A DNA stretch of 48,125 nucleotides, taken from contig NIVC01003419.1 in assembly GCA_002269645.1 (NCBI GenBank), positions 1-48,125 of the forward strand, in the 5' to 3' direction. Positions 24,761 through 27,700 of the stretch are shown here, in pieces. The translations under genes and the position numbers were made by a program. Origin of the DNA: Macrostomum lignano (taxonomy: Eukaryota). Under the pieces are notes generated by a model. That model ran no database searches and was not told the DNA's origin. It saw only the letters and a program-made list of their open reading frames with translations. The number at the start of each line of letters is the position of its first letter. Position 1 is the stretch's first letter.

Positions 24761-27700
24761 AAACTTGTCCAAGAGCTAAGAAGACAGTGAATGCCATAAT
24801 GCAAAGAACGACAACGGAAAGCGACAACAGTTTAGAACTAACAGAAACTGCACATTGTGAGGTTCAAGGGCAACCGACACTAGCAACGCGGCTATATCCA
24901 TCGATTCCGACAACACCAACGGCACCAAGGATACAACCACCCAACTATCAAGCAGAACAGCACGAGCCAAAATGGCCGGAAAACTACGTCTGTACGCTAC
25001 ACGCCGAGATTGGCAAAGCAATGGCTCAGGTCATTGTCAACAACTTGCCATGTCGAGCACTACTGGATTCAGGCAGCTCGATCACAGTCATCTCGCAACA
25101 ATTATGCAACAAGCTACGACTCGCGGTACGACCAGCAGCAATCGCAGTTGCAGGAGCAGGAGGACATTCACTCAACATCCTAGGAAAAGCAGATATCGAC
25201 TTGAAAATTGCTAATAAACAGCTGACGGTCCCGACGTACATCATCGACAGACTACCAAACCAAGACGTCATCGTTGGAATCGACACGTTCAAGCAGCTTC
25301 ACTACCATTGACCTTCGACTTCAACAAGCAAACGTTTAGGATCGACACGGTGGAGCAACCGCTGATCAACAGATTCGAGTACTACCGAAAGTAACTCTGC
25401 AGCAAGATGTCATTATCCAGCCTGAAAGCGCATGCTGGGTCAGAGCGAAAACGACCAGCGCGGCAGATGAAGCAATGATATTTGATCCACACAGGAGAGT
25501 CACGGCAAAACATCAAATCATGATGCCTACGGCACTAGTGCTGGTTGCAAAGGATAAGCAACTGCCAGTACAAATCTTCAACCCGAACACAGAAACGGTT
25601 CATCTACGACAAGGAATGTGCATCGGTCATCTCAACACCCAAGCATCGGTTATGCTGATTGAACAAGCGACTCCACGACTAACAGAGGAAGAATTTCAAA
25701 AGAAGATCAATTTGGATGACAGCCCGATTACGGAACAGCAAAAGAGGAAAGTTCGACAGCTGTTGTGGAAGTACAACGAAGCCTTCTGCCATCATGATTA
25801 CGACATCGGACGAGCCAAGGACATCAAACAGGAAATCAAACTTCTGCCGCACACGGAACCAATTCAGTGCAAGCCGTACCCGATCGCCAAGCATCTGCAA
25901 CAACACTTTGACGAAATCATCGATAAAATGCTAAAGCACGGCATCATCAGCAAAGCTATTTCGGCTTACTCCTCACCGTGCCTACTGGTACAGAAGAAGG
26001 AGACAAACGAAAGACGACTCGTATGCGACTTCAGACTGTTGAACAAGTACATACCGACGGATCAGCAAAGCCTACCGAAGATCTCCGAACTACTAGCAAA
26101 GCTCAACACGGCAAAATTGTTCACGGTGTTCGACCTACGTCATGGATTTTGGCAAATTGAAATCGAGAAAGAGTCACGACAGTACACGGCTTTCAAAACC
26201 TACAATGGACAAGTATACGAGTACAATCGATCGCCGATGGGACTTAGCAACAGCCCAGCAACGATGAGTCGACTAACAGCATACATGCTAGCAGGATGCA
26301 CGAACCTGCTGCACTATGTCGACGACATTTTAGCCTACGGAGAGGATTTCGAGCGACTCTACGAAGCTACGGAGAAGGCCCTAGCGCTCATTCAACGCCA
26401 AGGTCTGAAGCTACAACCAACTAAATGCAAATTCTTCCGAGACAACGTGCGTTACCTGGGACATCAGGTGACAGCCAAAGGAATCTCACCGGACCCAGAC
26501 AACGTGGAAAAGGTGAAGAAGTTTCCTACGCCAACCAGTATAACGAAGGTCCAATCATTCCTTGGACTTGCGCAATACTTCAGGAAGTTCTTACCTAACT
26601 TCGCAAAGACAGCAAAGCCACTGTACGACCTGCTCAAGTTCGACAAATGGAAGCAAGACAACTGGACACAGAGACAACAGGAAAGTTTCGACGAAATCAA
26701 ACGACAGCTGACATCAGACGCACTGCTACAGCATCCGGACTTCGACAAGCCCTTCATCATCGAGACAGACGCCTCAGGAACGGGACTCGGAGCAGTCCTA
26801 CTACAGGAAACCGAGGACAAGAAGGAACGACCTATTGCTTACGTCAGTCGAGCACTCAAACCAAATGAGACAAAGTGGTCAGCTACGGAACGAGAGCTAC
26901 TAGGAGTCTTGTTCGCCCTGCGACAGTTTCATTACTACATCTATGGTTCTCCAATACAGACGATAGTACGCACGGATCATGCACCATTGACCTACGTCGT
27001 AACTACAAAAGGACAGACCAACAACCGACTCATCAGGATGACACTCAAGATCCAGGATTACAACTACAAACTCGTCTACAAACCAGGAATTACCAACAAA
27101 GCCGCGGACGCCCTGTCAAGAGCCTATGAAGTCAACGCCATTCATCCAATCCCTAACATCAAGGAGTTGGTGGATGAAACCGAGCGCGACAACTTCTACC
27201 AAGCGGTTAAAGACGACGACAAGAACATCAAACTTAGCCCATGGAACGAAAATTCCTACGCAAGCAACGACAACACCTAACAATCAATAAGTCACGGCTC
27301 TACTGGATGAGCGACAATAAACCCAAGATCTACGTACCATATTCGTTTCGGCAAGCAATTCTCAACGAGCTGCACGACAACCCACTCGCTGGACACCTGT
27401 CGGCCGCAAAGACCATCGCGAGAGTGGAACAATACTACTTTTGGCCAACTATGTACGGCGACATCAAGCAGTATTGCAACAACTGCCATTCATGTGCTGC
27501 ATCAAAGACAGGACGACGACAGAAACCGCAGCTACAGTCCATTCCGAAGTCGACTACAATGGACTGTCTAAGCATCGACATCACCGGACCACTGCCACCG
27601 AGCTGTCTCCAGGGCATCGCCTACACCTACATTCTAACCGCCTTGGATATCTTCTCGAAGTTTGCTATCGCCATACCGATACCGGACATCACAGCTCAGA

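Follow-up and report, generated by a model that had tools for sequence, protein, structure and literature searches.

Late-domain-type motifs on the fusogen tail of a gB-type Gag-Env-Pol errantivirus of Macrostomum lignano

Introduction

The locus described here raises the question of whether an errantivirus could carry budding signals on the tail of its fusion protein. Errantiviruses with the gene order GAG-ENV-POL and a gB-type envelope have been reported in Nematoda, Bryozoa, and Platyhelminthes (Chary and Hayashi, eLife RP108449, PMC13524379). The transmission mechanisms of such elements were called elusive in that study, and enveloped infectious particles of gB-type errantiviruses outside insects are the open question on which this locus bears (PMC13524379). 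Late (L) domains usually reside in Gag, matrix, or other structural proteins, NS3 of bluetongue virus (BTV) being an exception (PMC7995964, PMC8402826, PMC10159163), and they are noted in reviews as position independent (PMC7995964). An earlier note on 48,125 nucleotides of the M. lignano contig NIVC01003419.1 (the window, meaning the whole stretch of DNA analyzed) had pointed to three ESCRT late-domain-type motifs beside an Env transmembrane (TM) helix and proposed that budding signals had moved onto the envelope tail. Here, the cluster was analyzed in its element, in related elements, and against the host genome.

Results

The cluster lies between Env and Pol of a gB-type errantivirus

The long terminal repeat (LTR) element at positions 19459-30064 is a Ty3/gypsy errantivirus of the gB type with the order Gag-Env-Pol (Table 1), and Pfam matches give the Pol order PR-RT-RH-IN. 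The window copy is broken near 21.2, 22.9-23.0, 23.7, 25.3-25.4, 27.2, and 28.9 kb. Among other natural copies, a single stop-free Gag-Env-Pol frame of 2538 codons was present in 4 of the 123 matches listed, and divergent families displayed stop-free frames of 2502-2866 codons. Near-identical copies are frequent: 17 of 40 scored matches, the window's own included, reached the top score over 701 bp.

Judged by LTR and primer-binding site (PBS) features rather than by sequence comparison, the window's family is very likely the catalogue entry Platyhelminthes_Rhabditophora_Mlig_errantivirus_2 (PMC13524379). The catalogue row lists the LTR as 0-863, the same PBS 12-mer, and 16 copies, with an LTR spacing of 9727 compared to 9742 in the window; the reverse complement of TGGTGATCTCGC equals the PBS 12-mer in row 1445 of Supplementary file 1 of that study (PMC13524379). 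The elements described there share the gene order, the gB-like fold, and two hydrophobic segments flanking the ectodomain with the window's element. A library record labelled Macrostomum lignano retrovirus-related polyprotein (P0002) showed 99% identity over the matched part and the same tail.

Table 1. Features of the errantivirus in the window (window positions, strand in parentheses)
Feature	Position	Remarks
Target-site duplication	19455..19458 (+)	4 bp, CGTG; second copy 30065-30068; flanking letters compared
5' LTR	19459..20322 (+)	864 bp, TG...CA; 100% identity with 3' LTR
Primer-binding site	20325..20336 (+)	TGGTGATCTCGC, TGG-starting
Gag and long acidic linker	21039..22889 (+)	CCHC knuckle ~21743-21790; frame broken in window copy
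First hydrophobic segment	22890..22946 (+)	Basic residues before, ends ATA; predicted to act as internal signal/anchor of Env
gB-like (class III) Env ectodomain	22947..24678 (+)	Frame broken in window copy
Furin-type site in Env ectodomain	23875-23886 (+)	RRRR
Env TM helix	24679..24735 (+)	Hydropathy 2.43; helix also in predicted model
Disordered tail/linker	24736..24993 (+)	86 aa, TM to protease
LYPSI	24892..24906 (+)	ALIX-type LYPx[LI] motif
PTAP	24916..24927 (+)	TSG101-type motif
PPNY	24937..24948 (+)	WW-domain-type PPxY motif
Aspartic protease	25021..25302 (+)	DSG 25066-25074; Pfam PF13650/PF13975
Reverse transcriptase and RNase H	25340..27280 (+)	Pfam
Integrase	27238..28527 (+)	Pfam
Accessory RING ORF	28648..28884 (+)	Truncated in window copy; other copies ~220 aa, two Cys/His clusters
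3' LTR	29201..30064 (+)	Purine tract upstream

The Env ectodomain matched PF24664 with an E value of 1.1e-5, below the family cut-off. An AlphaFold model of Env, tail, and protease of a natural copy (20-sequence alignment; pLDDT 65.9, pTM 0.34) was searched with Foldseek, and all top matches to Env were herpesvirus gB proteins (best HSV-1 gB, E 2.2e-19), at low TM-scores of 0.16-0.42. The tail is predicted to be disordered, with pLDDT below 50 over model residues 595-679. The two hydrophobic segments occupy residues 660-678 and 1256-1274 of the natural copy; basic residues precede the first and follow the second, and six N-glycan sequons lie in the Env ectodomain and none in the tail. Signal peptidase would presumably cleave after the first segment. 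In the natural reading frame, Gag starts with MARRNP and is without Gly2. The linker from the CCHC knuckle to the Env signal (window 21800-22890; locus L067) comprises about 380 aa with 23-25% Asp/Glu in the window's family (family A); the same linker has 5-17% Asp/Glu in other families, and its length differs between subfamilies.

The finding of three motifs within 19 aa between Env TM and protease was confirmed in translation, coordinates, and frame: window:24892-24948(+) reads LYPSIPTTPTAPRIQPPNY, in frame with the upstream TM helix and the downstream aspartic protease. This stretch follows the TM helix and is predicted to be cytosolic; the tail is not ended by a stop but continues into PR-RT-RH-IN. 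No P[TS]AP, PPxY, or LYPx[LI] match other than those of the cluster occurs in any of the three forward frames over 19300-30500. The statement that the element's Gag frames lack such motifs also held, with no strict match on the Gag side of family A (614 aa scanned) and only a loose YPALII at 21254 in the window copy; a YPTDDL at 22982 lies in a frame other than the natural one there. LYPSI, with its final Ile, was placed in the short LYPxL class by the pattern [LM]YP.[LI], which we take to define that class. The class name itself, as distinct from the [LI] pattern, is attested (PMC8728146, PMC13532356).

One gene model (P0001) skips exactly this stretch. Splicing-out of the cluster was rejected and the skip treated as a prediction artefact, because no GT..AG joint at the cluster was among the joints listed for the contigs of four runs (presumed RNA) and because contigs of three runs (presumed RNA), in which rare forms are dropped, span it unbroken.

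Motif cores are conserved within family A

The family A sample consisted of 52 loci, 49 of them with an open TM-to-protease frame, which yielded 29 distinct DNA versions, 28 of equal length. Pairwise DNA identity among these 28 had a minimum of 76% and a median of 83%. Amino-acid changes affected 1 of the 10 motif-core columns compared to 29 of the 56 other tail columns (Fisher p 0.017), and those common to at least two versions affected 0 of 10 core columns compared to 27 of 65 others (p 0.011); the copies are mutually related, and the column statistics carry that kinship. The core also held seven synonymous variants. Variation within the motifs sits on wildcard positions: the first position of LYPSI was L in 20 and M in 8 versions, with Y, P, and I constant in 28/28, and the x of PPxY was N (17), T (7), G (3), or I (1), with P, P, and Y constant in 28/28. 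PTAP was kept in 27 of the 28 versions, the exception being one copy with PPAP. Taken whole, the 19-aa cluster (7 of 19 columns changed) was not significantly more conserved than the remaining tail (p 0.30). The three non-motif tail prolines were equally invariant among the family A versions, so part of the motif-core conservation is generic. On these alignments, the tail motifs appear to behave as selected short linear motifs.

Two motif classes recur in other Env families of the genome

Searches of the M. lignano genome yielded ten Env families, which form three deep groups (A/B/B', C/D/E, and F/G/H) with family I alone; protease identity between groups is at most 34% and tail identity at most 33%. 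The tail of family A reads LYPSI-PTAP-PPNY, those of B and B' PTAP-IYPKI, those of C and E PSAP, that of D PSAP-LYPTL, that of F PSAP-IYPTI, that of G PPAP-LYPKI (thus without P[TS]AP), and that of H PSAP-LYPTI; the tail of family I has none. P[TS]AP was therefore found in 8 of 10 tails compared to 0.28 expected from shuffles, and YPx[LI] in 7 of 10, where even the looser YPx1-3[LI] expects 1.14. One family B copy with a full frame carries PNAP. A single P[TS]AP match, and no match to [LIM]YPx[LI], a pattern chosen after data inspection, fell in the frames outside the tails. In family A the YP motif comes before PTAP; in B, B', D, F, and H it comes after, as expected for movable linear motifs. 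The conservation anticipated for relatives was thus seen for P[TS]AP and YPx[LI], across families and amid divergent tails, whereas PPxY is conserved in the tail within family A only; being present in 1 of 10 family tails (0.57 expected), it is at chance level, and the three motifs together are not a common trait.

PPxY was found on the Gag side of families B (PPPY), B' (PPAY), C (PPRY), and E (PPQY), and family D has a second PSAP in the linker ahead of the first hydrophobic segment; the Gag sides of families F and G, like that of A, had no strict motif. The proposal that budding signals had moved from Gag is not established by this distribution, and it remains unproven because Gag, Env, and Pol form one polyprotein.

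A reverse transcriptase (RT) tree of 54 rows placed families A-E and G in one clade (99/95), G on a long branch; F, H, and I were not included. Since these families belong to one RT clade, the Env-family counts are inherited rather than independent, and shuffle p-values overstate the case. The pattern is thus one of deep retention within a single lineage and not of ten independent gains. In family C (L069-L073), the stop-free frame opens with a hydrophobic stretch that lies at the first Met or before it, and the Gag of this family carries two CCHC knuckles.

Motifs are scarce in Env-less elements and enriched in distant Env tails

As an Env-less control, 12 gypsy families of the same genome were scanned over 3757 aa of Gag and pre-protease frame (62 usable loci out of 64; L111-L113 were excluded as non-retroelement-like). 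PTAP was found in 1/12 families, PPxY in 1/12, and YPx[LI] in 0/12. At two loci of one of these families (L167 and L173), PTAP lies at most 6 residues from the end of the scanned Gag frame, and this frame overlaps the protease start.

Distant relatives were taken from a 50%-cluster protein library, as the best 150 of 171 matches, to which all library counts given here refer. The query included the tail; among the 13 positive matches, there was only one whose best-scoring stretch covered the motif. From 78 Env-matching proteins, 55 tails were obtained after dropping 6 from families of the own genome, 15 in which no TM was found, and 2 with tails below 30 aa. Any strict motif was present in 13 of the 55 tails compared to 1.88 expected: P[TS]AP in 6 (0.44 expected), PPxY in 6 (1.15 expected), and [LIM]YPx[LI] in 4 (0.3 expected). 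The other 42 tails were without a strict motif, and the motifs are thus not required across Gag-Env-Pol elements. Within the same proteins, 16 strict motifs fell in 5,835 aa of tail and 13 in 61,431 aa elsewhere, a roughly 10-fold difference in density. The positive tails include P0009, a member of a second RT clade, and P0107, whose record is labelled Haemonchus contortus; in P0086, labelled Caenorhabditis tropicalis, PPAY follows a TM helix.

Among these same best 150 of 171 matches, tails without a protease seen behind them carried a motif in 5 of 21 cases (0.76 expected), and no motif was present in any of the 13 library proteases that have a CCHC knuckle at most 130 aa from the protease site. 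A "PR-only" control seemed enriched (5/31 with a motif); however, four of the five positives have an upstream hydrophobic helix and resemble fragments of Env elements, and the fifth is N-terminally short. Atlas matches were all under 0.9 and served as leads only.

The host encodes candidate partners

Coding sequence for a TSG101 UEV domain and for an ALIX V domain is present in the M. lignano genome, as are many HECT domains, of which any WW-HECT type is putative. Host ALIX retains the KFY stretch, whose Phe we take to be the YPxL pocket residue. The host UEV (L142:1468-1866; L141 and L143 scored identically in the search) retains the PTAP-contact residues T58, Y68, N69, T92, M95, V141, and S143 as listed in PMC7650771, and it carries the substitutions Y63->H, R64->K, and F142->V (human numbering). 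Judging by these residues, His at Tyr63 and Val at Phe142 may shift the peptide preference.

When the UEV was modeled together with 41 aa of the tail, the predicted complex scored 0.39 compared to 0.00 for the best control, at a partner pLDDT of 46, which lends weak support to binding; the runs agreed in at least 88% of contacts. Of the solved pairs, 51 of 78 attained the mark used, as did 2 of 108 mismatched pairs, and the range at or below 0.60 held only 5 passing solved pairs together with all 4 passing mismatches. The score could also reflect prior exposure of the predictor to PTAP-UEV complexes, which have already been solved.

Discussion

A budding role for the Env tail

The cluster is a real and selected set of late-domain-type motifs, borne by the fusogen tail within a Gag-Env-Pol polyprotein, in an element of an already catalogued kind. 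Since the motifs recur on the Env tail in very distant relatives, they likely drive particle release, and we lean slightly towards the reading that a membrane-tethered polyprotein recruits ESCRT through the Env tail in order to bud. The polyprotein would cross the ER membrane twice. Gag would thereby stay in the cytosol, tethered at its C terminus, Env would face the lumen, and tail-PR-RT-IN would again be cytosolic. Because Gag has neither a myristoyl signal nor an evident matrix, membrane attachment would be provided by the two helices. Capsid assembly would take place on membrane rich in Env, with the Env tail serving to package Pol and the tail motifs arranged along the bud neck, the site of ESCRT action, at the plasma membrane or into endosomes. 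There, the cluster would recruit host TSG101 and ALIX, and possibly a WW-HECT ligase, leading to the pinching-off of enveloped particles. Release by the protease would leave the motifs on Env. This route would yield the actively budding particle that the earlier note had envisaged.

A broader model is more tentative, and we would place it somewhat short of an even chance. Gag-Env-Pol errantiviruses could share a "matrix-free" mode of budding, in which the fusogen of a twice-threaded polyprotein tethers capsid and polymerase and exposes a cytosolic tail with ESCRT late domains. These domains would have been repeatedly gained, lost, and reordered across flatworm- and nematode-type lineages, with PPxY shuttling between the two cytosolic linkers that flank Env.

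The late domains of retroviral Gag proteins (PTAP and YPXnL in HIV-1 p6; PSAP, LYPAL, and PPPY in MLV; those of HERV-K p15) belong to the same three classes and are likewise closely spaced in a disordered segment. Unlike these, the window cluster follows an Env TM helix instead of a soluble Gag domain, the accompanying Gag is without Gly2, and the function is predicted. BTV NS3 (PSAP and PPXY) and Toxoplasma GRA14 (PTAP and LYPxL) are membrane-associated proteins whose late domains recruit ESCRT, but neither serves an enveloped particle as its fusion protein or forms part of a capsid-polymerase polyprotein. If the budding reading is true, this would be a retroviral-type particle with late domains on the fusion protein instead of Gag or matrix. 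The main text of PMC13524379 contains no occurrence of late domain, ESCRT, cytoplasmic, budding, or polyprotein, and its figure supplements could mention motifs. No report of late domains on Env tails of errantiviruses or retrotransposons was found in a search beyond which subscription journals and bioRxiv supplements could hold one; the first third of bioRxiv 10.1101/2024.12.18.629116 has nothing on Env tails. The tail motifs would constitute sequence evidence that gB-type elements engage the host machinery of membrane scission or sorting, and the 19-residue stretch offers a handle for peptide-binding and host-knockdown work.

Alternative explanations

The main rival, unlikely in our estimate, is that the motifs bind ESCRT adaptors but serve to sort or destroy Env(-Pol), by endosomal or multivesicular-body traffic, by exosome-like loading, or by trimming the excess of a 1:1:1 polyprotein. 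All of the conservation evidence fits such sorting equally well, and a single frame would imply far more Pol than a capsid needs. E-cadherin is loaded into vesicles in a late-domain-dependent manner (PMC9511404), GRA14 is a precedent for late domains on a membrane-protein tail (PMC13532356), and HSV-1 gB goes to multivesicular bodies with tail-dependent ubiquitination, although the passage linking the herpesvirus gB tail to this pathway concerns ubiquitination and not late-domain motifs (PMC7995964). Budding is favored over sorting by the pairing of P[TS]AP with an adjacent YPxL, which is that of HIV p6 and HERV-K p15 (PMC3874623, PMC8402826). This pairing is scarce in Env-less gypsy elements, and in Gag itself neither a membrane-targeting signal nor a late signal is evident. 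Moreover, sorting into endosomal vesicles and budding may be a single event.

A second alternative concerns origin. HIV p6 sits just upstream of the protease, as the window cluster does, and the tail could be the old p6-like C-terminal end of Gag, split from NC by insertion of env before the protease, so that the motifs never moved. PPxY or PSAP in the NC-to-signal linker of families B, B', C, D, and E and the PTAP near the Gag frame end of one Env-less family agree with such a displacement. We nevertheless regard it as improbable: P[TS]AP is absent from that location in 11 of 12 Env-less families and in all 13 CCHC-adjacent library proteases (best 150 of 171 matches), and the tails without a protease seen behind them are still enriched in motifs.

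Slightly less probable again is that the residues are conserved for another reason, namely, a different binding partner, a proline-rich spacer, or a protease-site context beside the conserved W-P-x-N-Y stretch. The invariant non-motif prolines, the entire TRLYPSIPTTPTAP run with few shared changes, and the pocket substitutions in the host UEV are in line with this. There is also a viral parallel in the late-like PXAP and YCYL motifs of the West Nile virus envelope protein E, which are conserved and act independently of TSG101 and ALIX (PMC3766686). Against it, two exact ESCRT-type patterns recur in changed order and spacing, above composition-preserving shuffles, in tails that are otherwise at most 33% identical, and variation lands on wildcard positions. 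Chance matches are the least credible account: the motifs have only 4-5 residues and the tails are proline rich, but all three classes arose jointly in 7 of 300,000 shuffles of the 86-aa tail, and the counts in 8 of 10 families (0.28 expected) and 13 of 55 distant tails (1.9 expected; best 150 of 171 matches) suggest that chance is largely refuted for P[TS]AP and YPx[LI], with PPxY across families remaining at chance level.

Accessory ORF and surrounding sequence

The RING ORF behind the integrase (L061, L062, L063, and L067) encodes some 220 aa in families A, B, and B', including two RING-like Cys/His clusters, and B and B' have a second RING-like ORF behind the first. It possibly represents an element-encoded E3 ligase. 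The ORF starts with MGNALS, which we take to be myristoylation-like, in family A only, and with MDC or MAN in B and B'; an Arenavirus-Z-like myristoylated matrix was therefore rejected as a common trait. The ORF gave 109 matches in the genome, some of them clustered on three contigs (C87, C1130, and C2121).

Upstream of the element, window:17589-18197(-) resembles what we presume to be the N-terminal exon of a DEG/ENaC-type channel, and a second long frame lies at 16072-17013(-). Just past the 3' LTR, an aspartic-protease-like fragment (LIDSGA) of another LTR element was found at 30169-30591(-). Large satellite arrays with units of 8, 23, 40, 21, and 28 bp occupy 31000-44000, and the 8-bp type forms long inverted blocks at 36750-37277 and ~42600-43520. 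A dispersed repeat is present in three copies near 119, 5361, and 12036.
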